Assembly (NCBI GenBank): GCA_023266095.1
Contig: JAHFRV010000003.1
Coordinates: 29,444-93,443 of the forward strand
DNA from: Gammaproteobacteria bacterium
GTDB lineage: Bacteria > Pseudomonadota > Gammaproteobacteria > DRLM01
DNA length: 64,000 nt
Reading direction: 5' to 3'
Shown here piece after piece: positions 12,277-48,173 of this stretch. Position numbers and translations under genes: made by a program. Each line of letters starts with the position of its first letter. Position 1 is the stretch's first letter. The notes below the pieces were generated by a model. The model saw only the letters and a list, made by a program, of their open reading frames with translations. It was not told the DNA's origin and did not search any database.

Positions 12277-14166
<1,890 letters not shown>

Positions 14167-30724: not shown

Positions 30725-31198
30725 TTACTGATAATGTCGGGTCGTAAGGGACAGCCGCGCCGAGTGACACAGCACGCCGGCAAACATCACCGGTACGGAT
30801 TCGCTCACCTGCACGCCCGCGCGCTCGTCGGTAATCATGCTGTCCACCACGCCGCCCAGCGTGTCGTCATCGCGAAACGCATCGCGCACAGCCTCGATCA
30901 ACGCATCGAATGCCAACTCGGTTTCCTCCGCGTCCACCAAACTCATGAATCCGCGAATCTGCCAATCGTGATCCACCACATACCGCCCCACGTCAGGGCT
31001 GATCTCACGCGTCGCCACGCGGCGCACATGCCAGCCCAGTATTTTGTCCGCGCCGCCGCCATCATCCTGCGTGCGGTAGAACGTGAGCATGTCCGCCGAT
31101 TGTTTGGCGTACCGCTCATAGCCGCTCACCTGGCCAATGCCCGCCACGGTATTGATCGTGGCCACAATGGCGTTGCGAATCTCGGCAACGGTCGGCAT
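30725..31198 (-). CDS. phage tail completion / head-tail joining protein (hypothetical)
   Basis: 157 aa in the neck module. Confidence 0.45.
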   Translation of the reverse strand: MPTVAEIRNAIVATINTVAGIGQVSGYERYAKQSADMLTFYRTQDDGGGADKILGWHVRRVATREISPDVGRYVVDHDWQIRGFMSLVDAEETELAFDALIEAVRDAFRDDDTLGGVVDSMITDERAGVQVSESVPVMFAGVLCHSARLSLTTRHYQ

Positions 31199-31710
31199 CA
31201 GGTCGTCCCGCCCAATCGCTGCACGATGCGTAGTCGCGCAGCCTCAAACATCCGCACCACCTGCGCACGATTGGCCGCGAACGCGCGGTGAAACATACCC
31301 ACCGCGGGCGTGCCGCGCGCGGCGATCTTGCGCTGTATGGCGCGCGCAACGCCCGGCACCTCATCCTCCGACACGTCCAGCTTGTGCCGCACCCAATCCT
31401 CCAGCGGCTCGATCGGCGCCCAATGCGGGCGCGTACCCACTTCCACGGGCTCGGCGTAGTTGAGCGGCGACCCCACCACGCCGATCACACTGTCGCCGAT
31501 GGCCTGCGGGCTGAGCGCGGTGACGCTGCCGCGCAGCCCACCGCCGCCACCCACACCCACGGGCGTCAACTCTTTCACCTCGCGCTGCATCAGCAGCTCG
31601 GCCTCGAGCATTGCGGCCGTCAATTCCTGCCGGCATATCTCCGGCGCGCGACGCCACAAATCGGAAAGCTCGGCCGCGCCGTGCAGCGTCACGTCGATAT
31701 TCACACTCAC
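31198..31710 (-). CDS. HK97 gp10-like phage neck protein
   Basis: 170 aa in the position of a gp10-family head-tail protein. Assignment is from memory. Confidence 0.45.
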   Translation of the reverse strand: MSVNIDVTLHGAAELSDLWRRAPEICRQELTAAMLEAELLMQREVKELTPVGVGGGGGLRGSVTALSPQAIGDSVIGVVGSPLNYAEPVEVGTRPHWAPIEPLEDWVRHKLDVSEDEVPGVARAIQRKIAARGTPAVGMFHRAFAANRAQVVRMFEAARLRIVQRLGGTT

Positions 31711-32384
31711 CGGTAGCGCCTCGGGTGCGTCAGCCGGTCATTGCCCAGGCTGTCGTTGTTGTCGAAATTGCGAATGGCCGCGGCCGGCGCCGTGCGCTTG
31801 TCATCGAGTCCCAACTCGTCGAAGTAGCGCCCGCGCAAGCGGTTCGCGCGCGCGCCGTATTCACGGCTCTTGCTTTGGTGGTCCACGTTATCCGCTTGAA
31901 TCGTGGATGTGCTGTCGTTCGCGTAAAGCGCCGCCAGCTGATCGCATAAAAGCGCCGCGGCCCAACACGTCACCGCTTCGCGGTCGATAGAGGGGAGGGT
32001 ATCGCTCGCGTCGGAGAGGGTGTGCGGGACGGTGTACGCACAGCGCACGGTGGCCGCGGCGGATAAACCGGCAGGCACCTTAATCACTTTCGCGACCGAG
32101 GGCGCCTGATATAGATAAAACTGGTCGGGCTCAATGTGGCTCGGCGGCACATCGCCGATCGGATATTCCATCGATGTGATGTTGCTCGCCTCGTCATCCC
32201 ACGCGCTCGGCAGCAGCAGCGTGGTTGCGTTGCTGGCGGTAATGTCCTCCACCAGCTCGCGCGGCCGGTCTTTGCTGTACCGGCTCACAGCGCGGGTGAT
32301 GGCCTGATCGCGCGCGGCGGGCGTGATGCGGTTGCCCTCGTCGCGCACCAGGTCCATCACCAGCGATTGGTAGTCGATCAACAT
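31707..32384 (-). CDS. phage head-tail connector protein (hypothetical)
   Basis: 225 aa ORF in the neck module. Confidence 0.4.
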   Translation of the reverse strand: MLIDYQSLVMDLVRDEGNRITPAARDQAITRAVSRYSKDRPRELVEDITASNATTLLLPSAWDDEASNITSMEYPIGDVPPSHIEPDQFYLYQAPSVAKVIKVPAGLSAAATVRCAYTVPHTLSDASDTLPSIDREAVTCWAAALLCDQLAALYANDSTSTIQADNVDHQSKSREYGARANRLRGRYFDELGLDDKRTAPAAAIRNFDNNDSLGNDRLTHPRRYR

Positions 32385-32399: not shown

Positions 32400-32852
32400 T
32401 TACATCCGCACGCAGATTAGCAGCACGGTAATGTCGTTCCACGTCGGCGACGTGCCGCCGATCGTCAGGTCGACGGTGATCGCGCTCTCGTCGGCGATAG
32501 CGGTGTCGCTGATCGTGCCCTCGCTGTAGGCGCCTGCGGTAACGGAAATCGCCGAACTCAACACCGACGACGCACCCTCCTTGACGCTGACTGTCAGGGT
32601 CGGCGACGTGCCGCCCGATGCGCGCGCCGATGCGCCCACGCCGATCAACTTGCAGGGAAACGGCATGGCGAAGCGCGTCACCGCCGTGGTGGTGGCGGTG
32701 TACTGCCCAGAAATGTGCAGCGGGATCATCGTCACGCCGGAGATTGCCGACGAGTAGTTCGGCGTCGCGGCGTGCACCGGCGACATCGATACGCCAATGC
32801 CGATGCACAGCGTCAGCGCCAGCCCAAGCGCGAGGTGAGAAAGTTTTTTCAT
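32400..32852 (-). CDS. secreted Ser/Thr-rich hypothetical protein (moron?) inside head-neck module
   Basis: 150 aa. Clear signal peptide MKKLSHLALGLALTLCIGIGVSMSPVHA|ATP. Strong AAGGAG RBS. Confidence 0.5.
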   Translation of the reverse strand: MKKLSHLALGLALTLCIGIGVSMSPVHAATPNYSSAISGVTMIPLHISGQYTATTTAVTRFAMPFPCKLIGVGASARASGGTSPTLTVSVKEGASSVLSSAISVTAGAYSEGTISDTAIADESAITVDLTIGGTSPTWNDITVLLICVRM

Positions 32853-35641: not shown

Positions 35642-36559
35642 TCAACCCACTCGACGTGACCGCCCGGCCTCTTCCAATTCGCGCTTGCTGCGGCTGCGCG
35701 CCAGCTCCTCGGAGGTGAAGGCCTTTTTCTTCGGGCTACTCATATCCCAGTGCGCCATGTGCGGCAGCGACTCGCAGCCGCAGTTGATCGTCTCACCGGC
35801 CGGCCCCTGCGGGTCGCGCGGGTAGCGCAGCAGCACCACGCCGCGCGGCGTGTGCAGCCGAAACGGCTGGTCGACCGACTGTATCTGCCCGTCCGCGGCG
35901 TCATGATGGAAGCGCGAATGCACTTTCCCTGAGCGGCGCCACTGCCGTTGCAGCCCGGGCAGAATCTCCACCGCCTGCTGCTGTCGCTCATACGCGGCGG
36001 TGGAGAACGCGCGGCCGAGTTCGGTGCGCACCACGGTGATTGCCCGCCCGCGCCCGCCCTCAAACAAACCGGCAATGCTGCCGATGGCGTCCCCAGGCGA
36101 TTGCGCGCCGATCGCCACCAGGCCCAGCTGTGTGTTGATGCGATTCGCGACGGTCATCGATATATCGCGCATTTTATCGGTCATAAACGTGCGCATGCTG
36201 AGCAGCTGTTGCGTGTCCAGCTGCGGCAGCACCGCGCTAATGCGTATCCCGCCCGCCTCGAGCGGCCGCTCGATCAAGTCCGCACCCGCCTCCCACGCGC
36301 GGCCCGCGGCGCTGTTCACCGCGCGGCCCGCCTGCAGGGCCAGCTCATCCAGCGTCTGGCGGATGGACTTCTGCAGCTGCGGCAGGTGATAGCGTTCCCA
36401 CTCCGTGGGCGCGCTGGCCAGCGTAAGGCGCGCCCGCTCGTTCGCCACGGTGAGCAGCCGTTCGATCTCGCCGAACGTGTCGCGCTGGATCTTCGTGCGC
36501 ACCGCCGCGGCCTCGGTGCGCACGACTCTTAGGCGTTTGTTTTTTTCGCGCTCATTCAT
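35642..36559 (-). CDS. phage head morphogenesis protein (Mu F / SPP1 gp7 family)
   Basis: 305 aa in the F-like position after the portal. F-family assignment is from memory. Confidence 0.7.
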
Positions 36560-37185
36560 GCGGCAGCGCGGCCTCGGCTTCGCGTAAGCGTCGCACGGCG
36601 GTTTGGAAATATTGCGGCACCATCTCGATGCCTAGAAAGCGGCGCCCGGCCTCGATGGCGGCGACGCCCGTCGTGCCCGCGCCGGCAAACGGGTCGAGAA
36701 TACCCCCCCTGTGGGGTTATTTGTATCAGCTCGCGCATCAGCGCGACCGGCTTTTGCGTGATGTGCACTTTGCCGTTGACGATGGTTGCGTACCTCAACA
36801 CCCCGTCCAGATACACATCGGCCCACGCACGCATCGACCCGCGCGTTGCCCAGCAAATAAATTCCGACTGCCGGCGGAACCCGCCCTTGTGCGGCCGAGA
36901 TCCACGGCCCTTATCCCACACCACCACCGAGCGCGTAATCAGCCCTGCAGTGGACGCCGCGTTATTCATTTCACTGAAATTTCGCCAGTCGATAAACGAC
37001 AGCAGCACACCGCCTTCCACCAGCACGCGCGCCACACCGGTCATCCACTCATGCAGCTGCGCTAGCAATGCCAGCGAATCCCCTTGCCACATTTCCCACA
37101 GCGGCCGGCCCTCCGCGTCGGAGCGGGCCGACCGCTCGACGATCTCGGCTTGCGTTATTTCGTGATTGCATGTTGCGCAGCGCAT
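36552..37185 (-). pseudogene. decayed N4/N6 DNA methyltransferase (beta-class, TQKP...FAGAGTT)
   Basis: Has HITQKP. After a +1 frameshift in a C7 run (36703..36709) the reading continues [33 protein letters not shown] to the stop at 36552. The motif IV (DPPY) region is absent between the GDS.ALL and EW...RVL blocks, suggesting an internal deletion. Confidence 0.65.
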
Positions 37186-37208: not shown

Positions 37209-38669
37209 CTATATGGGTTGAACGTCTTGCATGTCTTGATCGGGCGGCAGGTCGCCGAACGTGTCGGCCTCCCTGCGTCCGGCCGCTTCCTCGCGCGCGG
37301 TCGCGAGCTCGTCCTCCGCGTCAAAGTCCGTCCCAAGCCGTTCGGCCACTGACTCAATGATGCGCAGCGCGGTAAGTTCACTCAGCAATCCGCGCTCGAC
37401 CGCCAGCGCCGCGGCCATCACCACTTGCTGCAACGCGGCTGCATATTTTGTGGTGTCGCTGGCGATCATCTCCGGCCACGTCACACTCACACCGCTCAGC
37501 AGCGCGGACTCCGGCTCGGCCTTGCCGCCGGCCATCAGGTGCCGGCGCAACACATACATGCCCACCGAGCGCAATACGTAGCCCAAGAAGTTTCGCCGCT
37601 TGCTGATCATCTTGAATGAGGGATCGCCCATCTCGCCCGCGGTGGCGCGGTTCACGTCGCCGCCCGTGCCGAACCAGTGTTCGGGTATCGACGCGCCGCC
37701 GAGGATGTGCCCGCGAAACAATCGAGCGCCAGCCGAGCTTTCGTACTGACCCAGCTCCGGCGCCATCGCTTTACGCTCAACCGTGTCGTTGTGATAGTGC
37801 GTCGATCCGGGCGAGGGCGGTTTGTCTTTCTTCGCGTAGTCGGCCACCTCGGCCGGCGTCGCGCCCTTGAGCGTCACGTCCCACACAAACGCGCGCATGA
37901 AGCTCGCGCGGTCCAGCTCGCCGAACAGAAATTGATCGTAGCCGTCCAGCCAATCCACCTGCGCCAGCAGGTCCGAGCGGCCACGGCCGCCGGTGATCAA
38001 TCCGTTCACCCGGTAAAAAAAACATTCGCCATCTGCAAAGCCCGCGCGTATCTCGCGCGTGCGCTCGGTAAACACATCCTCCCCGCCGTTGATGATGATG
38101 CGGTATTTTTTGTAGCGGCCTTTACTGTCCTTTTTTGTTATCACGCCAATCGGCTGCGCCGCGTTGTCCGGGTCTTTCACCACCTCGGCGATGCGGCACG
38201 GATCGAGATAACCGATGCGCACGTGCCCGGTCAGCTCGTTGACGAACACCGGCCAGCACAGCTCGCCGAACAGCGCCAGCTCGCGCACCCGTTCTTCCAG
38301 TTTGAGGTCCCATTGATTGATGGGGTCGTCCCAATGCGCGTGCAGCACGTCCTGCAGGTCGGGCTCGTCGTGCGCCATCGCCACGCCCTCGGAGAGCATG
38401 TAGGCCAGCGGCAATTCAATCAGCCGATTGCCGAGCAGGTTCTGCTCCCACACGTAGTGCGCCAGCCGCTGCATGCGCTCCTGCGTCATCGGCGTAAGAT
38501 CGCGGTTGCCATCGCCGGTGAGCTTGCGCCAGTCGGCCTCGTCGGGGTCCACCGTCACCGCCACCGCTTCGCGCAAGGGCCGCTCGTCGTCCTGCCGTTC
38601 ATCCGCGGGCGGCATCGCCGGTGCGGCAAACGCGCGCACCGTGGCCATAAGTCGTTGTGCCATTTTCAT
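37209..38669 (-). CDS. phage portal protein (Mu gp29/DUF935-like)
   Basis: 486 aa. Sits between the TerL side and the F-like gene. Size and position fit a Mu-type portal. Confidence 0.6.
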   Translation of the reverse strand: MKMAQRLMATVRAFAAPAMPPADERQDDERPLREAVAVTVDPDEADWRKLTGDGNRDLTPMTQERMQRLAHYVWEQNLLGNRLIELPLAYMLSEGVAMAHDEPDLQDVLHAHWDDPINQWDLKLEERVRELALFGELCWPVFVNELTGHVRIGYLDPCRIAEVVKDPDNAAQPIGVITKKDSKGRYKKYRIIINGGEDVFTERTREIRAGFADGECFFYRVNGLITGGRGRSDLLAQVDWLDGYDQFLFGELDRASFMRAFVWDVTLKGATPAEVADYAKKDKPPSPGSTHYHNDTVERKAMAPELGQYESSAGARLFRGHILGGASIPEHWFGTGGDVNRATAGEMGDPSFKMISKRRNFLGYVLRSVGMYVLRRHLMAGGKAEPESALLSGVSVTWPEMIASDTTKYAAALQQVVMAAALAVERGLLSELTALRIIESVAERLGTDFDAEDELATAREEAAGRREADTFGDLPPDQDMQDVQPI

Positions 38670-38896
38670 TTGTTCAATCTCCTGGCGCTAACCGTGAACA
38701 CATACACCTCACCCACGACGAATTGCTCCGCGAGCGACAACGGCAGCCGCATATCAAAGCTCCGTGCATCCGGTAGATGCTCAAACTCACTGACCGGCGA
38801 GAAGCCCACCGTCACGAGCGGCGGATGATTATTCACCCACCACGGCCGAAACTCGCGGGTGAACGTACAGCGGAACGGTAAATCGATGCTCTGCAT
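38666..38896 (-). CDS. hypothetical protein (module between TerL and portal)
   Basis: 76 aa. ATGA-coupled to the portal start. Confidence 0.3.
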   Translation of the reverse strand: MQSIDLPFRCTFTREFRPWWVNNHPPLVTVGFSPVSEFEHLPDARSFDMRLPLSLAEQFVVGEVYVFTVSARRLNK

Positions 38897-39004
38897 AGCC
38901 GCGCAAACCTTTATAAAGCCTTTACGAGGCGCGAACGAAACACCGCCGCACGTCCGGCCGCATGAGAGCGCGCGCGCCGCGTGGCGCGCCTCTCGTTGCG
39001 CCGA

Positions 39005-39334
39005 TCATTGCGGCTCGAGATCACGCACATACAGCATGCCCTCCAGCACCACTGTGTTGCCGTTGCTGTCGGTGCCGGTGGCGATCATGTGATAGTCCTC
39101 GCCGTCGGTGCCGGCGGCGATGCGGCATTGCGCGGTCTGCCCGCTCACCGTCGCGCCGCTCACCGTCACGTTCGCGCTGCCCGCCACGTTGCCGCGCTTC
39201 GCTTGCGTGATCACCGGCGTGCCCGAGAGCGTCACGCCGCTGCCCAGCACCTTCGCACCGCTGAAGTTGTAGACCCGCGATTCGCTCGCGCGCTTTTCCA
39301 GCACCGGCAATCCGTTTTGCGGGTCGCGCATCAT
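39005..39334 (-). CDS. hypothetical beta-repeat protein
   Basis: 109 aa, Gly/Ser/Thr/Val-rich short repeats (GTPVITQAKRGNVAGSANVTVSGATVSGQ). Confidence 0.4.
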   Translation of the reverse strand: MMRDPQNGLPVLEKRASESRVYNFSGAKVLGSGVTLSGTPVITQAKRGNVAGSANVTVSGATVSGQTAQCRIAAGTDGEDYHMIATGTDSNGNTVVLEGMLYVRDLEPQ

Positions 39335-40323
39335 GACGTCGTGCCCGTCTCGCGCAGCGTCCAGGTGGTTTCATTCGCGGCCGCGCCCGCCGCGAGGCTG
39401 AGCTTGGTCCACACACCCTGCGATGCGCCGGCCGTGTGGTTCTGCGAGTTCGCCACGTTCTTCGCCGTACTGTTGAACGTGTAGCCGCCCGGCGCAACCA
39501 GGCGGCTATTGCCCAAGCCGTTGGTGTCGCTGCCGCCGAGCGAGGTCTCCAGCGCAAAATCAAAGATGCCGAGCGCGTCGGTCACCTCGCTGATTTGCGA
39601 GGCGGTGAGCGCCAGCGTGCCGTGCAGGTTGGTGAAAAATATTTTGTCGTAGTACGTGCGCGCGCTGCCGCCGGAGGCGTCGGCCGCCGCGTCGTAGGCG
39701 ATGCGCCGCACCTGCATCACTTCGTCGGGCGTTTTCTCAAACACCATGCCGCGAGAAATGCGGAAGGTGCTGGTGGCATCCGGCGCGGTGGCGAAGTCAC
39801 GCGCGGGCGTCGCCACTTTCGTCGAGCCCACATAGTCGAAGATGCGGCGTATCTCGCCCGCACCCGTGCCGCCGGTGATGCGCAGCACCATGCCGTTGTA
39901 GGCGTCATCCGTCGCGCTCGCGCCGGCGTCGAGCGTGATGGATGCAGCGGCACCGGCCGCGGCGGTGTTGCTGCGCTCCGCCGTGGCCGCTTCCAGCGCC
40001 ACGGCGCCCGTGGTGCTGGCGCTCTTCACGGCTTTCAGCAAATCCTTCCAGTTCGTCACCGAGGTCATTGCCACCGGCGTGAGGCCGGCGAGCACTTTCC
40101 CCTCGTTTTGCAAAACGCCCGCGGCATCGCGCCCGGTAACGGTCACCGTTTGCGTGACGTCGCCGGCGGCGGAGGACACCACCTGCACGTTGTCGGCGGC
40201 GGACAAATCCGCAAACACCACGCGCTTGGTCTTGTCCACCGCGCCGCCGATGTCGGTGGTGGCGTCACTGTCGGCCATCGAGGCCGAGCCGTAAATCTCT
40301 ATATCCTGCGGTCGTACCGGCAT
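39331..40323 (-). CDS. hypothetical protein (Ala/Thr/Ser-rich, fiber/decoration-like)
   Basis: 330 aa from the Met with an AGGAGA RBS. The stop overlaps the next start (ATGA). Confidence 0.45.
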   Translation of the reverse strand: MPVRPQDIEIYGSASMADSDATTDIGGAVDKTKRVVFADLSAADNVQVVSSAAGDVTQTVTVTGRDAAGVLQNEGKVLAGLTPVAMTSVTNWKDLLKAVKSASTTGAVALEAATAERSNTAAAGAAASITLDAGASATDDAYNGMVLRITGGTGAGEIRRIFDYVGSTKVATPARDFATAPDATSTFRISRGMVFEKTPDEVMQVRRIAYDAAADASGGSARTYYDKIFFTNLHGTLALTASQISEVTDALGIFDFALETSLGGSDTNGLGNSRLVAPGGYTFNSTAKNVANSQNHTAGASQGVWTKLSLAAGAAANETTWTLRETGTTS

Positions 40324-40334
40324 TGCTGCATCTC

Positions 40335-41222
40335 CTATCGTTTCTCCACTGTCCACACCACACCGCGCGCGGGCACTTCCCACACCACGCCGCGCGCATC
40401 CACGTACCACACATCCGTCACGCCGCCCACAAAGCTCGGCTGCGGCTGCGACCAATTCGCCGGCAGACTCTCATCCGCCGCTATTACCATGCGCCAGTCC
40501 GCGGGCACGGCCACGTCGCCGCGCATTTCGCCGCGCCAGCCGGCCGGCACAAAGCGGTCGGCGACGATCGACTGCACCCAGCCCACCGGCATCGCGTGCT
40601 CAATGTTCACCGCCGCGCGCATCAGCGCGGGCAAGGCGAGATCCGCCGCCGCCACCGCGCGCCACCCAACAGGCGCGGCCTGCGTGGCCTCCAGCAACAC
40701 GCCGCCGCGCCACAGCAGCGGCAGCATGGCATCGCTCGCGATGCCGGCGGAGAACATCACCGGCAGCCCGTGCTCGCTGCGCAGCCCCGAGAACCATGCC
40801 GCCTGCATGCCGTGATCCGCCACCAGCTGCGCGCGCGTGGCAATCGGCAGCGCATCATCGGCCGCGAGGCTCGACCGCCACACCGCGCCAAGCTCGGCAT
40901 CCGCATCCACCACCACCGCGCCGCGCCACATGCCGGGCATGGCGACGTCCGCCGCGATACTCGCGCGATGGCCGGCGGCGAGCAGGTGATCCGCGCGCAG
41001 CGTCTGCGCCCATCCCGCCATCAATGCGGCGTCGCGGTTGATGGCGGCCAGATAACCCGCCGGCAACCCGCCGTCGCTCAATGCCGTGGCGCGGGCGAGG
41101 GCGGGCAGTGCGGCGTCCGTCGCGATGGATGATCTCCCGCCGGCTGGAATAGCGTGGTCGGCGTTGATGGCGCCGCCGCCAGCGGCTGGCTGCAAGTAAA
41201 GACTTACATAACGCGCATGCAT
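40335..41222 (-). CDS. tandem-repeat protein (~14 x [D/H]xx[LMV]PxxW[R] units)
   Basis: 295 aa. Repeat units such as DVAMPGMWRGAVVV, DAMLPLLWRGGVLL, DLALPALMRAAVNI, DVAVPADWRMVIAA. C-terminal VVWEVPARGVVWTVEKR. Confidence 0.5.
   Translation of the reverse strand: MHARYVSLYLQPAAGGGAINADHAIPAGGRSSIATDAALPALARATALSDGGLPAGYLAAINRDAALMAGWAQTLRADHLLAAGHRASIAADVAMPGMWRGAVVVDADAELGAVWRSSLAADDALPIATRAQLVADHGMQAAWFSGLRSEHGLPVMFSAGIASDAMLPLLWRGGVLLEATQAAPVGWRAVAAADLALPALMRAAVNIEHAMPVGWVQSIVADRFVPAGWRGEMRGDVAVPADWRMVIAADESLPANWSQPQPSFVGGVTDVWYVDARGVVWEVPARGVVWTVEKR
40450..41100. repeat. imperfect ~42-48 bp tandem DNA repeats encoding the DxxLPxxWR units
   Basis: Recurring cggcaNNgcNNNNtc / gccaccgcgcgcc-type blocks on the plus strand. 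Both strands stay open across them. Confidence 0.45.
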
Positions 41223-41223
41223 A

Positions 41224-41553
41224 TCAGAGGCTCAAAATATTCCAATCGAATGCGCGCCCCGTGCCCGCTATTTGTTTAAGCGTGAAGGTGCATTCCGTAT
41301 CGACAGGAATCGGGATGCTGTATTTGTTTGGATCGGCCTGTATGTTGGCGAACGCTCCGATGCGCGTCTGTCTTGATGTGCTACCAGACTTGCACTTGCT
41401 ATACACTCGCAGCTCAAGCACATCCCCATTAACCATCGCGTTTGCATCGACTACCAGAACATACACACCCGCCGTTGTAATGGCGGTGCCTAGCGTGTGC
41501 TCTGTATTGATCGTCGCCGTCTGAGAGCCGGATTGATTCGATGTTACGCTCAT
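41224..41553 (-). CDS. hypothetical beta-sandwich-like protein
   Basis: 109 aa from MSVTSNQ. ATGA overlap with the upstream stop. Confidence 0.4.
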   Translation of the reverse strand: MSVTSNQSGSQTATINTEHTLGTAITTAGVYVLVVDANAMVNGDVLELRVYSKCKSGSTSRQTRIGAFANIQADPNKYSIPIPVDTECTFTLKQIAGTGRAFDWNILSL

Positions 41554-42338
41554 GAGGCCCCCATGATTGATACGTAGAAATTGGATACCGTGCCGCCGAT
41601 AAACGTGAACCTCGCCGCAAGACGTGTTCCGGCTGGAATATCGACCGGCAGCCAAAATAGGTGCTGGGGAAAGACTCCACGGGTTGATGGGCGACCCAAA
41701 AAGCTGAGTTGCGACAACACTACTTGCTCGGAACCGGCTGCGCCGATGCCGATGTCTAATTTAAATTCGATCCCGTTAGTCGTGGTGTTTGATGTGATCA
41801 TGATCCCCATCATGCGCATTGCGCTAGATGTCGATGCCGTGATCTGCGCCCATGACCCCGTGCCTGAGCCGGGCATGGTGACAAGGGTGCCGCGACTCGA
41901 TCCGACACTGCTGCCGTAATCGGTGATGAGACTGAGCGCGGGGAGGGAATCAAATGCGGCTGCCACGAATCCGATGGATATTTGCGTGGTGCTTGAAGAG
42001 CTCGCCGCTGCGCGGACGGCGACCCGTGTTCCAGCCGGGATTTCACAATGGAATATGATGGGTTGATTCCAGATATCATCAGTATTAGATACATTTCCCC
42101 CCGCAATATTAGGAACGATAACCAGCTCTGATCCGGAGGCCCCGATACCGATATCGATCAATGCGTAGTACGGCGCGCCGGCATTGCCGCGCCACTGCAC
42201 GACGACGCCGCACGAATTGAACGGAGTGGATGCCGTTACCTGCGCCCACGTGCCTTTTGCGTTAACCCCTGGGGTGGCGTTCGTTATTGCCTGCCCCTGA
42301 TACCTATTACTACCGGCAAAGATTCCCCAGTCAGCCAT
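41550..42338 (-). CDS. hypothetical protein with internally duplicated ~100-aa beta domain
   Basis: Halves WAQVTAST...IDIGIGASGSE...IPAGTRVAVR and WAQITAST...LDIGIGAAGSEQ...IPAGTRLAAR. Confidence 0.45.
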   Translation of the reverse strand: MADWGIFAGSNRYQGQAITNATPGVNAKGTWAQVTASTPFNSCGVVVQWRGNAGAPYYALIDIGIGASGSELVIVPNIAGGNVSNTDDIWNQPIIFHCEIPAGTRVAVRAAASSSSTTQISIGFVAAAFDSLPALSLITDYGSSVGSSRGTLVTMPGSGTGSWAQITASTSSAMRMMGIMITSNTTTNGIEFKLDIGIGAAGSEQVVLSQLSFLGRPSTRGVFPQHLFWLPVDIPAGTRLAARFTFIGGTVSNFYVSIMGAS

Positions 42339-42735
42339 TGATGATGCACTCTTTGTCGGCCGCATCGAGCAGACCGATGGAGACTAGATAATCTAGTCCC
42401 ACAATCATGTCCGGATCGTCCGATAGCACTTCATTCGCTGAGTCGAGCAGCGACACGAAATCCTCCACGATAGGGTTGTTTTTTGCCGCCACGCGAATTC
42501 CGATGCGCTTAGGCGTCGGGATGCGCTTCAAAAAATCATAACGGGACCATGACACTCGACTGGCGCGCGCCAGGCGCGGTACAAAGCTCAGCGCTGCCGC
42601 ATCCCACTCGTGCGTGCCAATATCCGGCCCGTCGATCGCGACTGAGGCGAGGCCATCCGGAAGCGGATCGGCGACTACTTCGCCCACACTCACCAGCTGT
42701 CCGTTTGACGCCCTATACACCGCATACCATGTCAT
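42331..42735 (-). CDS. hypothetical protein
   Basis: 134 aa. TGAATG junction with the upstream gene. Confidence 0.4.
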   Translation of the reverse strand: MTWYAVYRASNGQLVSVGEVVADPLPDGLASVAIDGPDIGTHEWDAAALSFVPRLARASRVSWSRYDFLKRIPTPKRIGIRVAAKNNPIVEDFVSLLDSANEVLSDDPDMIVGLDYLVSIGLLDAADKECIING

Positions 42736-43104
42736 TCAATAATCTCCGTCGCTGTTAACAGTCTTGATCGCCTTGCCGTCGGTCTTTACCACCCACATCC
42801 CGGCCAGCACGCCGCGCGGAATGTAGCGCCCACCCGGCACCACGTGCCCCGGGCCGCGCTCCATCAGCATATGCTGCACGCCTTCGGCATGCAGCATATT
42901 CAGCAGCGTGCGGACAAACGCGCGGTCCAACTTCACGCCGGCCTTGAGTCCCTTGATTACCGCCGTCCGGCGCGTAATCCAGCCCACCCGCATCACCACG
43001 TCAAACTCGCTCATCGCGCCATAGAGCCGCTGCGCCGCCTCAGGGGACTCGCACTCGTAAAATCGCACTGTCGCGGATTCCCGTGTTATCACTCCATGCA
43101 ACAT
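42736..43104 (-). CDS. hypothetical protein
   Basis: 122 aa, AAGGAG RBS. First gene after TerL. Confidence 0.4.
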   Translation of the reverse strand: MLHGVITRESATVRFYECESPEAAQRLYGAMSEFDVVMRVGWITRRTAVIKGLKAGVKLDRAFVRTLLNMLHAEGVQHMLMERGPGHVVPGGRYIPRGVLAGMWVVKTDGKAIKTVNSDGDY

Positions 43105-43149: not shown

Positions 43150-44505
43150 TTACCGCCGTTGATTCATGATCAAGCGGCGGCGGTTGCCCATCGCCTGCGG
43201 CGTGTAGATATCACTGTTCGCCGCCACCGAATGTCCGGCCGGCGGCTGCATGGGATTGTGCGCGGCGTATTGACCGAGGAAGGCGGCCCACGCGCGGTCG
43301 GCGTGGCCGGCCTCGTCACTCTCCGCGTCGAGCCGCACGTGGCCCAATGTCGTCACGGTCTTGCGCAGCTTGTGCAGATCGGCGCGCAGCTCTTTGTCGC
43401 CCTGGCGGATGCGCACCTTGCGGTCTTCGAATCCCTGCTTGCCGATGGTGCCGAGCTGAATTTTATTTGGCCCGGTGAACAGCACGCCTTCAACGCGGTG
43501 TTCACCGTAGCGGCGCTTGGCATCTTCCACCGGCTTCTCGCCCATGCCGGTTTGATCGATCGCGAGCCGGCGCACGTCGTAGCGGCCGACCAGCTCATCC
43601 AGCACCGCGTCGTGCTCGGCGAACTTTTTGCGCTTGAGTGTGACGATCTCGCGCTCCCACAGCACATCGCCCACCAGCTCCCACACCCACGCCACCCACA
43701 GATCGCGCCGCGCGCCAATGTCGTTACCGATGTAGCAGGGGCCGCCCTGATACAGCTCAGGCCGGCCGGCGTCCGGGTGTTCCACGCCGTTAATGAGGTC
43801 ATAGCTCAGCCACGCGCTGGCTTCGTCCAGCCAATGCAGCTCGTATTCCTGCGCCCATAAATCATCATCGTTCAGGCCGCGCCGCAGCTCGTCGATGTCG
43901 CGGTCCAACCCTTCGGCCACGGCCTGGTGAATATCCACCACGTGGCGGTGATCGGCCCACACGGAATCCGCCGTGGTCATGAGGTCGTAAAATTTATTCC
44001 CCTTGCCTTTCGGCGTGGACGTGATGCGCAGCTTCAATCCGCGCTTGCTCACCACCGGGAACAGCGAGCCCCATATCGCGCGCGAATCTTGATGGATGGC
44101 GAACTCATCCAAATACACATTCGCGGAGAAGCCGCGGGCGGTGTCGGGGTTCGCCGGCAACGCGGTGATCTTCGAGCCGCCGGGCAGCTCCACCTCGAGC
44201 GCGCGATAGCTTCCCTCGTCACCGCGCCAGTCGTATTCCAAATTCGTCACCGCCAGGTTGTACGCCTGGCAGTGCCGCTTGATACCTTCATCCATCGCCT
44301 CTTTGGCCTGTCGCTCGCCGCGCGAGAGGATCACCCAACGCTCGCGCCGCCCGCGCGAGATAGCCTCAAAACAATCATCGACAATTTCCAGGCAGGTGGT
44401 GAATGTCTTGCCGGTTTGTCGCGCGAACATGCCGATCTTGAAGCGCGAGCGATCCAGGAACCACCGTTGCTGATAGCCGTAGAGCGGAACGACGGGCATG
44501 TTCAT
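43150..44505 (-). CDS. phage terminase large subunit (Mu gp28-like)
   Basis: 451 aa. Walker A FARQTGKTF and a nuclease-like C-terminal half. Follows the DUF3486 gene. Confidence 0.8.
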   Translation of the reverse strand: MNMPVVPLYGYQQRWFLDRSRFKIGMFARQTGKTFTTCLEIVDDCFEAISRGRRERWVILSRGERQAKEAMDEGIKRHCQAYNLAVTNLEYDWRGDEGSYRALEVELPGGSKITALPANPDTARGFSANVYLDEFAIHQDSRAIWGSLFPVVSKRGLKLRITSTPKGKGNKFYDLMTTADSVWADHRHVVDIHQAVAEGLDRDIDELRRGLNDDDLWAQEYELHWLDEASAWLSYDLINGVEHPDAGRPELYQGGPCYIGNDIGARRDLWVAWVWELVGDVLWEREIVTLKRKKFAEHDAVLDELVGRYDVRRLAIDQTGMGEKPVEDAKRRYGEHRVEGVLFTGPNKIQLGTIGKQGFEDRKVRIRQGDKELRADLHKLRKTVTTLGHVRLDAESDEAGHADRAWAAFLGQYAAHNPMQPPAGHSVAANSDIYTPQAMGNRRRLIMNQRR

Positions 44506-47617: not shown

Positions 47618-48100
47618 TTATTGTTGTTTGCAGTCGTCACAGTAATCAAAGAAGGTGAGCAGCATTCTCACACCATCTTCATCCAACCCATACATGAAAC
47701 TGAAATCCACCACCGCCTGGGCGAGCTGTGGCGCCAGCTGCTTACGCTGCTTGGCGGCCGCCCGCGGCACAAGTTTCTCCAACTCCCTAAGTCGCGCCAA
47801 GTCACTCTCCCGGCGGCGCTGCGCCTCAACCTCCGGCGCCACCACATATTGCGCTTGAGGGTCGGCAATCCCACGCGTGTACCGCATTTCGCCCCGGCCG
47901 CTCAACAGCCACTCGGCGTCGATCCCGTGCGTGCGTGAAAGAGCACGCACGAGCTCAACAGGGACAGGCCGCTCGCCGCGCTCGTAATTCTGGTAAGCAC
48001 GCAAGGATATCCCCATCTGGGCCGCGATCTCCTCTTGAGAAAGCCGCGCGGCGTCCCTCGCCTGCTTTAGCCTCCCCCCAATACCGCTGTTCTCATGCAT
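47618..48100 (-). CDS. XRE-family HTH repressor (c-like)
   Basis: 161 aa from MHENSG. HTH LSQEEIAAQMGISLRAYQNYERG. Divergent from the early operon. Confidence 0.7.
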   Translation of the reverse strand: MHENSGIGGRLKQARDAARLSQEEIAAQMGISLRAYQNYERGERPVPVELVRALSRTHGIDAEWLLSGRGEMRYTRGIADPQAQYVVAPEVEAQRRRESDLARLRELEKLVPRAAAKQRKQLAPQLAQAVVDFSFMYGLDEDGVRMLLTFFDYCDDCKQQ

Positions 48101-48121
48101 CTTTTGCCTTTCTTTTTTGCC

Positions 48122-48173
48122 GTGCGTAAAGACCCCCATCCGTGCTTGACTTTACGCACAAACATGCCGATAC
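48122..48173 (+). promoter_or_regulatory. candidate early promoter and operator (10-bp inverted repeat gtgcgtaaag/ctttacgcac, TTGACT-17-GATACT)
   Basis: Inverted repeat at 48122-48131 and 48150-48159. -35 TTGACT at 48145-48150 and -10 GATACT at 48168-48173, upstream of the ner-like gene. Confidence 0.35.

Follow-up and report, generated by a model that had tools for sequence, protein, structure and literature searches.

The receptor-binding cassettes of tailed phages are tailspike or tail-fibre modules that combine conserved anchors with variable distal parts. Accessory fibres are also held at the neck, as in the Ralstonia podophage GP4, whose fibre system was reportedly described by Zheng et al. 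(2023, J Mol Biol). That system (PDB 8JOU) comprises the adaptor gp77 (Pfam PF23148), Fiber I, formed by gp80 (PF23140), and a "rope" (PMC11445570, PMC12609058); gp77 is a 93-aa Ig-like protein that rings the head-to-tail adaptor in 15 copies and holds the fibres (PMC11445570). The collar of phage Bas63 is homologous to the GP4 adaptor, forms an Ig-like ring on the connector, and bears whiskers; the gene for the whiskers, gp5, is located between the portal gene (gp3) and the capsid gene (gp8) (PMC12609058). Twelve copies make up the Bas63 collar, which has a rope of its own at the N terminus, and the whiskers are small Gp80-like dimers. The neck fibres of the Anabaena myophage A-1(L) consist of a gp5 pentadecamer and bead-chain fibres of gp82, gp81, and gp80 (PMC10966104), and the Pseudomonas phage DEV has the long fibre gp53 (PMC11445570). 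Here, we describe a gene block that is, in our assessment, probably a portable set of accessory fibres and their collar, in which the receptor-binding cassette can be swapped.

The block occupies the interval between the large terminase (TerL) gene and the portal gene of a Mu-like siphovirus prophage in a 64,000-nt stretch of gammaproteobacterial DNA (hereafter the window). It consists of eight conserved, co-directional ORFs (O1 to O8, positions 38666-43104), all on the minus strand and located as the first-pass annotation had placed them. Both flanks lie outside the module: upstream is the large terminase (43150..44505, minus strand; Pfam Terminase_6N, 87.8 bits, and Terminase_6C, 63.1 bits; phrog_5909), and downstream is the portal protein (37209..38669, minus strand; 205.9 bits), whose family is phrog_10963 and not Pfam Portal_Mu. 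The phage combines a Mu-like head module with transposition genes: besides terminase and portal, we find a Mu Gp27-type small subunit (Phage_Mu_Gp27, 108.8 bits), a MuF-like protein (Phage_Mu_F, 29.2 bits against a cut-off of 29.6; phrog_2468), a DDE transposase (rve domain in an 802-aa protein, 25.9 bits, below the 32.6 cut-off), and a MuB-like ATPase (AAA_22 in a 415-aa protein). It also has an HK97-type capsid gene, with the protease-scaffold-capsid fusion and MuF separate from the block, and a complete J-type tail tip. The block is absent from Mae-JY22, the closest isolated phage, whose terminase and portal genes lie 58 nt apart, which bears out the earlier view that adjacency is the normal state; the window portal is 55% identical to the protein directly after the Mae-JY22 terminase. 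As a standard or annotated unit the block is absent among the 50,697 phage genomes searched, so the outcome that would have told against the first-pass annotation was not observed.

Each of the eight ORFs has conserved homologues elsewhere, and we therefore regard all of them as real genes. The junctions from O1/O2 to O8/portal measure, in order, 0, -8, -4, +1, +11, -4, +108, and -4 nt, so that the proposed tight coupling holds for seven junctions and fails at the 108-nt gap ahead of O8. Good ribosome-binding sites had been proposed throughout; Shine-Dalgarno sequences are clear in about half of the genes and not in the remainder. Similarly, the reported richness in Ser, Thr, Gly, and Ala applies to O3-O7 (39-47% of residues) and not to O1, O2, and O8 (20-29%).

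We find no promoter- or terminator-like sites on the coding strand of the block, and O8 is translationally coupled to the portal gene (ATGA). These features argue against the block being nonstructural "moron" cargo carried in the late operon, with a role in defence, exclusion, or cell-surface modification. Such cargo would fit the lack of annotated relatives for 7/8 proteins, the dispensability of the block in Mae-JY22, and the foreign composition of part of it. However, searches of all eight proteins against PADLOC-DB defence models (E <= 0.1) return 0 families, an NCBIfam search returns zero matches, and none of the proteins has a signal peptide or membrane segment, leaving unsupported the earlier suggestion of an uncharacterised accessory system. 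In addition, homologues are found in phage-like contexts (IMG/VR contigs or contigs with phage structural genes), and O7 falls in a virion protein family. We consider this explanation very unlikely.

The earlier statement that none of the eight proteins is recognizable is nearly true, the exception being O7 (109 aa; 39005..39334, minus strand). O7 matches the Pfam Gp77 model (PF23148) over model positions 1-77 of 84 with 26.4 bits (E 1e-5), falling 0.6 bits short of the gathering score of 27. At E <= 0.01, the model matches 8/9 O7-type sequences, and 9/10 aligned sequences when GP4 gp77 is included; the sole miss (L010) is the most divergent O7-type sequence. O7 orthologues in three contigs (L022, L023, and L024) have unmarked precomputed PF23148 matches, and an O7-family profile constructed without gp77 retrieves, of the 21 GP4 proteins, only gp77 (24.3 bits). 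O7 aligns end to end with the 93-aa gp77, and its length is within the ~90-110 aa of the single-domain Ig-like Gp77 type. These sequence comparisons make a convincing case that O7 is a member of the family of the GP4 Ig-like fiber-tail adaptor, and it may accordingly be expected to form a collar ring at the neck.

The likeness to GP4 extends beyond this homology, as the collar gene lies among fibre-type genes in both phages, and in GP4 the gene two positions upstream of that for the collar encodes gp79, which is about 300 aa long and rich in repeats; O5 occupies this relative position in the window. The same role would be expected, that of a symmetry-mismatched neck ring holding accessory fibres. 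GP4 differs in being a podovirus, whereas the window phage is a Mu-like siphovirus whose module has an exchangeable jelly-roll cassette. Furthermore, none of the eight ORFs matches the Gp80 whisker/Fiber I model (PF23140) at E <= 0.1, O4 and gp80 are unrelated by hhalign (probability 0.4%), and O5 and O6 have no detectable relation to GP4 gp78 and gp79, the latter being absent from PDB sequences. Because a Pfam Gp80 homologue is absent, the fibre proteins would be of another kind than those of GP4 and Bas63. A weak local similarity between O8 (76 aa; 38666..38896, minus strand) and the C terminus of gp80 (31 residues, 9.3 bits) is not confirmed by the Pfam Gp80 model; O8 has an orthologue in L022/L023 at 51% identity.

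In the Felixounavirus myophages Bas63 and Sf14 (PMC12609058, PMC11821841), the whisker gene lies inside the head gene cluster, as does the window module, and the role proposed for collar and whiskers is accessory adhesion or head-tail bracing; in the window, the partners O5 and O6 are of unrelated families, and the module has a receptor-binding cassette in addition. The likeness to A-1(L) and DEV lies in a 15-fold neck ring or collar that anchors five fibres, in a separate small fibre operon, and in a distal bead with a carbohydrate-binding module. The A-1(L) gp5 fold differs in being helical, and we found no sequence or fold relation of O5 or O6 to the neck-fibre proteins of A-1(L) and DEV. 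Gene position does not discriminate between shell and neck, because the collar and whisker genes of Bas63 are also among head genes. Capsid fibres or an adhesive decoration on the shell (at vertices or hexamer centres) instead of the neck are unlikely in our view, given that O7, the only recognizable protein, is in a family whose solved member is on the neck and not the shell, and that the pair occurs among tail or connector genes in contigs of the L008 type.

The tandem-repeat protein of the first-pass annotation is O5 (295 aa; 40335..41222, minus strand), in which the motif [LMIVA]P occurs 14 times with a 14-residue register, over about 17 register positions, with the repeat unit xxADxxLPxxWRxx and a conserved C-terminal end besides the repeats. 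Among 119 representative homologues, the repeat region mostly forms the C terminus of 400-2400-aa proteins, some of which are large lectin- or sialidase-bearing proteins with N-terminal BNR_4 or Laminin_G_3 domains. O5 also matches phrog_6079 ("tail protein") weakly, and the L008 homologue does so more strongly. We infer that O5 is a fibre shaft or "rope"; its 14-residue repeats and conserved C terminus would suit a rope, and a self-folding repeat shaft is equally possible. Triple beta-spiral shafts, such as those of the adenovirus fibre, reovirus sigma1, and PRD1 P5, are trimeric and have ~15-residue repeats with a turn Pro or Gly and alternating hydrophobics. The O5 period is 14 residues, with conserved Pro and Trp, and O5 may resemble such shafts.

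Conservation within the module is highest for O6 (330 aa; 39331..40323, minus strand), which is predicted with high confidence to be all-beta (pTM 0.92). This model has no whole-fold match in the PDB and lacks coiled coils, long helices, and any further recognizable fibre feature; the earlier description of O6 as fibre-like is thus not borne out, the model giving no sign of an elongated fibre. An inserted domain of ~88 aa (residues ~111-198; 39730..39993, minus strand) also occurs in tail tube proteins, which suggests that O6 is surface exposed. O6 could serve as a fibre subunit or as an anchor beside the collar.

O5, O6, and O7 are encoded as neighbours in many unrelated contigs of sipho-, myo-, and podovirus-like phages, and their position in the operon varies. 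These genes lie between TerL and portal in the window, L022, and L096, between portal and capsid in L024, after the capsid gene in L004, in a myovirus contig (L027), and beside a "head closure" gene in podovirus-like contigs (L008). These contexts bear on the idea that the proteins are essential head-assembly factors of the lineage (scaffold or head completion) too divergent to be recognized. Location in a head morphogenesis operon and the TerL-module-portal order in three lineages would agree with it; however, the block is absent from the closest isolated phage, the same trio accompanies lambda-type, Mu-type, and other head gene sets in three morphotypes, the central part of the block is exchanged freely, and the protease-scaffold-capsid fusion and MuF are separately present, making it extremely improbable.

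O6 homologues also occur without O7 (L027 and L028), and in L028 the O6-type gene immediately follows that for the tape measure protein, which argues against attachment at the neck in every case. Side fibres attached to the tail are exemplified by lambda Stf and the L-shaped fibres of T5. In a reading of this kind, O5 and O6 would sit on the tail tube or tip (distal tail protein or hub) and O7 would be a mere Ig-like accessory; we rate this as quite unlikely for the window phage.

At the other end of the block, O1 (122 aa; 42736..43104, minus strand) is basic (pI 9.7) and has the GC3 of the rest of the phage (0.77). Its orthologues are the first genes of the module in L022 (72% identity) and L024 (34%), and it has no match in Pfam, PHROG, NCBIfam, or PADLOC; it may be an assembly factor or adaptor.

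O2, O3, and O4 form an exchangeable cassette (41224..42735, minus strand) of foreign base composition, with GC3 values of 0.64, 0.61, and 0.59, respectively, against 0.77-0.87 for O1, O5, O6, O7, terminase, and portal. In L022, a close relative whose O6 is 90% identical, the O2-O4 interval holds a 164-aa protein, in the place of O2, and a 431-aa tailspike-like protein with a weak Pfam Beta_helix match, and O1, O5, O6, O7, and O8 are kept; in L096, proteins of 481 and 149 aa replace O2-O4. The eight window proteins themselves contain no beta-helix (tailspike/depolymerase) domain detectable with Pfam. As in the exchangeable receptor-binding cassettes of other tailed phages, a conserved frame (O1 and O5-O8) surrounds a variable middle that is a jelly-roll pair, a beta-helix, or a 481-aa protein; the difference is that the window cassette lies in the head operon and not after the tail tip genes.

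Within the cassette, O3 (262 aa; 41550..42338, minus strand) is the internally duplicated protein noted earlier, with two halves of ~130 aa that are 31% identical (E 7e-15); the ORF extends to 42365, and the start was set at MADWG, as in all homologues. None of its 606 homologues is named. The AF2 model of O3 (pLDDT 90, pTM 0.87) predicts a tandem jelly-roll of lectin/CBM-like fold, and its Foldseek matches, at TM 0.2-0.4, are confined to tandem beta-sandwiches of a generic type (a CBM22 tandem, PHM, PNGase F, and a comovirus coat protein). We also considered and rejected a double jelly-roll capsid protein (PRD1 P3, hexon), as none is among the top 50 Foldseek matches and the capsid gene is HK97-type. 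In a podovirus genome, a 414-aa protein encoded in the structural region starts with an O3-type domain, and O3 is a candidate receptor- or glycan-binding head. O4 (109 aa; 41224..41553, minus strand), a small beta-type protein with no match in the PDB or Pfam, is an obligate partner of O3: O4 homologues directly follow O3 homologues in L021, L029, and L030 (45-57% identity), and the pairs in L021 and L029 lie among tail genes. O2 (134 aa; 42331..42735, minus strand) is acidic and absent from L022, and its N-terminal 57 residues share 44% identity with a 110-aa protein whose gene immediately precedes the O3 homologues of L021; it might act as an adaptor or chaperone for O3 and O4.

The Gp77-type collar homologue, the fusions of O5 repeats to BNR_4 and Laminin_G_3, the O3 jelly-roll, and the beta-helix replacement jointly favour two of the three options raised in the first-pass annotation, namely accessory fibres or decoration and a second receptor-binding set. 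We think it fairly probable that this is a collar/whisker and neck-fibre apparatus of known kind, built here from uncharacterised protein families. The block would then be a self-contained, horizontally mobile virion fibre module expressed with the late operon. O7 would ring the head-to-tail connector as a docking collar, and O6 and O5 would supply, for fibres docked on this collar, the proximal part and the shaft, O5 either as a trimeric repeat shaft or as an extended "rope" threaded with O6 subunits. O2-O3-O4 would be the distal receptor-binding cassette, in which O3 provides the lectin-like head, O4 the constant partner, and O2 the adaptor or chaperone; O1 and O8 would act as accessory or assembly factors. 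Because the J-type tail tip is already complete, such fibres would be a second set, and may provide a second, reversible attachment to surface glycans besides the tail tip. If this is true, a swap of the cassette could shift the host range of the phage.

The prophage in the window (~19900-57000) is Mu-like and transposable, as judged by its gene content. Its early genes encode an 802-aa protein with an rve integrase core, for which Pfam gives 25.9 bits (below the cut-off), as well as an AAA ATPase like MuB and an HTH repressor. On the minus strand the late operon carries an M15 endolysin, a small terminase subunit of the Mu Gp27 type, the large terminase (43150-44505, minus strand), the portal (37209-38669, minus strand), a DNA methylase, a MuF-like protein and a protease-scaffold-capsid fusion. 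The head genes are followed by a complete siphovirus tail with tube, tape measure, distal tail protein and J-type central fibre; connector proteins are encoded at 32400-32852, 31707-32384 and 31198-31710. The early operon (plus strand, from ~48.1 kb) and the lysis/late operon (minus strand, 47.1 to ~19.9 kb) diverge at a central repressor gene (47618-48139), a layout unlike that of phage Mu and common to the close relative L022 and the Microcystis phage Mae-JY22. The N6/N4 DNA methylase gene (36556-37185) also interrupts the Mu-type order, being inserted between portal and MuF, and looks internally deleted (209 aa against 271 aa in the L022 orthologue, with the tblastn alignment in three pieces).

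Eight minus-strand genes (O1 to O8) separate large terminase from portal, and their coordinates are just those given by the first-pass annotation (38666-43104). Their junctions, from O1/O2 to O8/portal, measure 0, -8, -4, +1, +11, -4, +108 and -4 nt, and no promoter- or terminator-like site was found on the coding strand of the block. All eight are real genes, since each has conserved homologues elsewhere; no signal peptide or membrane segment was found in any of the eight proteins. The premise that terminase and portal normally adjoin holds in Mae-JY22, which alone among isolated phages has a portal like this one (55% identity) and where the Gp27-like gene, terminase and portal are consecutive and the latter two are spaced by 58 nt. 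Phage Mu has the same order. Against this basic head module of the Mu type, the 4.4-kb block is therefore an addition. That the eight genes encode unrecognised essential head proteins is very improbable, being contradicted both by Mae-JY22 and by the promiscuity of the module described below.

The possibility that the block is standard, annotated equipment of other phages found no backing: searched as DNA and as protein against 50,697 phage genomes, it has no counterpart beyond short domain-level matches, in Mae-JY22 and two uncultivated phages, and the same is true of O3, O4 and O6 each searched alone. A search of representative genomes returned matches only in a few metagenome-assembled genomes (Nitrospiraceae, Thermodesulfovibrio and an Escarpia endosymbiont). 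Seven of the eight proteins are indeed unrecognisable, as the first-pass annotation had it for all of them, with nothing beyond sub-threshold noise in Pfam, PHROGs, NCBIfam or PADLOC; the exception is O7. Its match to Pfam PF23148, the fiber-tail adaptor protein gp77 of the Ralstonia podophage GP4, falls just short of the cut-off (26.4 bits against 27), and the orthologues in L022, L023 and L024 carry a precomputed Gp77 match. In an alignment of ten sequences, nine match the family, namely GP4 gp77 itself and eight of the nine O7-type sequences, the sole non-matching one (L010) being the most divergent. Because this alignment matched 8JOU only through gp77, the comparison was repeated with an O7-family profile built without gp77, which finds gp77 alone among the 21 GP4 proteins (24.3 bits). 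By sequence similarity O7 very probably belongs to the Gp77 family, and membership holds for O7 only. A paper that cites the GP4 study describes gp77 as a 93-aa immunoglobulin-like protein present in 15 copies around the dodecameric head-to-tail adaptor, holding the fibre sets (PMC11445570). A homologous Ig-like collar in the myophage Bas63 bears whiskers threaded on a "rope"; gp5, which encodes the whisker, sits amid the head genes, in the interval from portal gp3 to capsid gp8 (PMC12609058).

O6 is the most conserved protein of the module, with 271 homologous clusters, none of which has a name or a Pfam domain. Its AlphaFold model is all-beta (pLDDT 96.4, pTM 0.92) and has no Foldseek match in the PDB at E <= 0.001, and profile searches of PDB sequences with the O6, O3 and O4 families found nothing; as far as these PDB searches go, the predicted O6 core fold is without a solved counterpart. 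Two candidate identities, a diverged tail tube protein and a relative of O3, were ruled out by hhalign. An ~88-aa domain within O6 (39730-39993, residues ~111-198) is missing from 250-aa orthologues. Elsewhere (L014-L018, L019/L020) it turns up with 48-67% identity, both as an insertion at residue ~98 of tail tube proteins of the Phage_tube_2 type and adjoining J-like proteins, and it seems to be a mobile domain of the surface that is exchanged among virion proteins.

The tandem LPxxWR-type repeat protein noticed earlier is O5, in which ~17 units, each of 14 residues (xxADxxLPxxWRxx), lead into a conserved C-terminal end. Among 1.84 billion representatives, a full HMMER scan identified 119 relatives, in most of which the O5-type region forms the C-terminal end of a protein of 400-2400 aa; two of ten such long proteins scanned begin with a domain of the BNR_4 (sialidase-like) or Laminin_G_3 (lectin-like) type at the N terminus, and BNR_4 is also present in a 2196-aa protein adjoining an O6 homologue. 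The latter protein, encoded between portal and O6 homologue on the myovirus-like contig L027 (1965-8555), has O5-type repeats near its C terminus and amounts to the putative fibre in giant, fused form. The 3' end of the O5 gene itself holds a 27-nt tandem repeat (40345-40412; 2.5 copies with 73% matches), which specifies the sequence VWxVxARGV three times right before the stop codon.

O3 is the internally duplicated protein predicted from the DNA (31% identity between halves, E 7e-15), and none of its 606 homologues is named. Its model comprises two jelly-roll sandwiches (pLDDT 90) whose likeness to tandem CBM22 modules, PHM, PNGase F and comovirus coat protein is no more than generic (TM 0.2-0.4), and on this Foldseek comparison O3 was rejected as a double jelly-roll capsid protein. 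O4 always lies directly after O3 homologues and is the better conserved of the two (45-57% identity); its identification as a GP4 Fiber I subunit was considered and rejected. Pairs of O3 and O4 also stand alone among tail genes (L021, L029). On one JGI metagenome contig (L030) a pair lies 2 kb from a gene (13203-14027) for a 274-aa protein of the Pfam Gp80, or Fiber I, family, a hint that other phages can combine whisker-type subunits with jelly-roll pairs. Residues 41-71 of O8 (38666-38896) resemble the C terminus of GP4 gp80 (PL..A....VG.V.VF.V; 9.3 bits), a similarity that may be chance, as O8 has no match to the Pfam Gp80 model.

Genes of the O5, O6 and O7 types adjoin one another in many unrelated contigs. 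The set lies between terminase and portal in the window, in L022 and in L096, a Nitrospiraceae metagenome-assembled genome whose portal is of the Portal_Mu type. In L024 it separates a lambda-type portal from a protease-capsid gene, in L004 it is 3' of the capsid gene, and in podovirus-like contigs such as L008 a "head closure" gene adjoins it; O5/O6-type genes are found between portal and MuF in the myovirus contig L027, and an O6 homologue without O7 directly follows the tape measure gene in L028. As far as these neighbourhoods go, the comparison shows that O5, O6 and O7 pass together, as one set, from one phage morphotype to another. In L022, whose O6 and capsid protein are 90% and 87% identical to those of the window, O1, O5, O6, O7 and O8 are kept and O2-O3-O4 are swapped for two proteins, one of 164 aa and one of 431 aa that bears a beta-helix signature; the same place holds proteins of 161 and 536 aa in L024 and of 481 and 149 aa in L096. 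The variable proteins encoded by L022, L024 and L028 had no informative match in PHROGs. GC3 in the window is 0.59-0.64 for O2-O4 and 0.77-0.87 for O1, O5, O6, O7, terminase and portal. Together, the replacements and the GC3 break thus mark the middle of the block as a recently exchanged cassette within a conserved frame, and a variable middle inside a conserved frame is the typical pattern of receptor-binding modules.

Judged from its genes, the block probably encodes a virion-associated accessory adhesion structure, and the best-supported reading, which we consider somewhat favoured, is a putative accessory fibre apparatus attached at the neck; on the attachment site itself our judgement is evenly balanced. 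O7 would form a collar ring at the neck, O5 and O6 a proximal shaft or anchor, and O2-O4 an exchangeable distal binding unit, with O1 and O8 as accessory factors. Such an apparatus would be a second attachment system, because the phage already has its J-type tail tip, along with another tail protein, of 501 aa. Accessory fibres and a second receptor-binding set had been among the options first listed, and fare best; capsid fibres or decoration, with which the gene position is compatible, are unlikely, as O7's family points to the neck. The uncharacterised accessory system also listed has nothing positive in its favour, and non-structural cargo, disfavoured by coupling to the portal gene, is highly unlikely.

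Within the neck-fibre reading, O5 could be either a self-folding repeat shaft or a rope threading O6 subunits, as in GP4 and Bas63. Fourteen extended residues span ~46 Å (by arithmetic only), about the size of a 250-330-aa domain, and this geometry allows either. More speculatively, and doubtful as a whole, the module may be a plug-in host-recognition device: a Gp77-type ring would dock on the connector by symmetry mismatch, without a specific partner, and for that reason could move between unrelated sipho-, myo- and podoviruses; each 14-residue O5 unit (~46 Å extended) would thread one copy of O6, making the fibre a new kind of beads-on-a-rope assembly; and the tip would be swapped freely among jelly-roll pair, beta-helix enzyme and giant sialidase-like protein.

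In its working the block would come closest to the GP4 adaptor, Fiber I and rope, as described in papers that cite the GP4 study (PMC11445570, PMC12609058), to the Bas63/Sf14 collar-whisker complex (PMC12609058) and to the neck fibres of A-1(L) and DEV (PMC10966104, PMC11445570). The whisker subunit that defines the GP4/Bas63 type (Gp80 family) is absent from the block, and no relation of O5 or O6 to any GP4 protein was found; gp78 and gp79, considered as relatives of O6 and O5, respectively, showed no similarity to them, and neither is among the PDB chains searched. With only O7 in the Gp77 family, Gp80 absent and O5 and O6 unrelated, the block would therefore be a variant form of a known kind of system, built from uncharacterised families.

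Cryo-EM has only recently revealed accessory neck or collar fibres, in few phages (GP4, Bas63/Sf14, A-1(L) and DEV), and the genes for such fibres are seldom recognised in genomes. The locus links a recognisable Gp77-family collar gene to three large unnamed families with no Pfam domain in the databases searched: O6 (>270 clusters), O3 (>600) and the O5-type repeats. If the reading is confirmed, many "hypothetical" head-operon genes could be annotated as host-range determinants, O6 would provide a new fold for structural study, and the module would be a portable scaffold with which to re-target phages while leaving the tail tip untouched.
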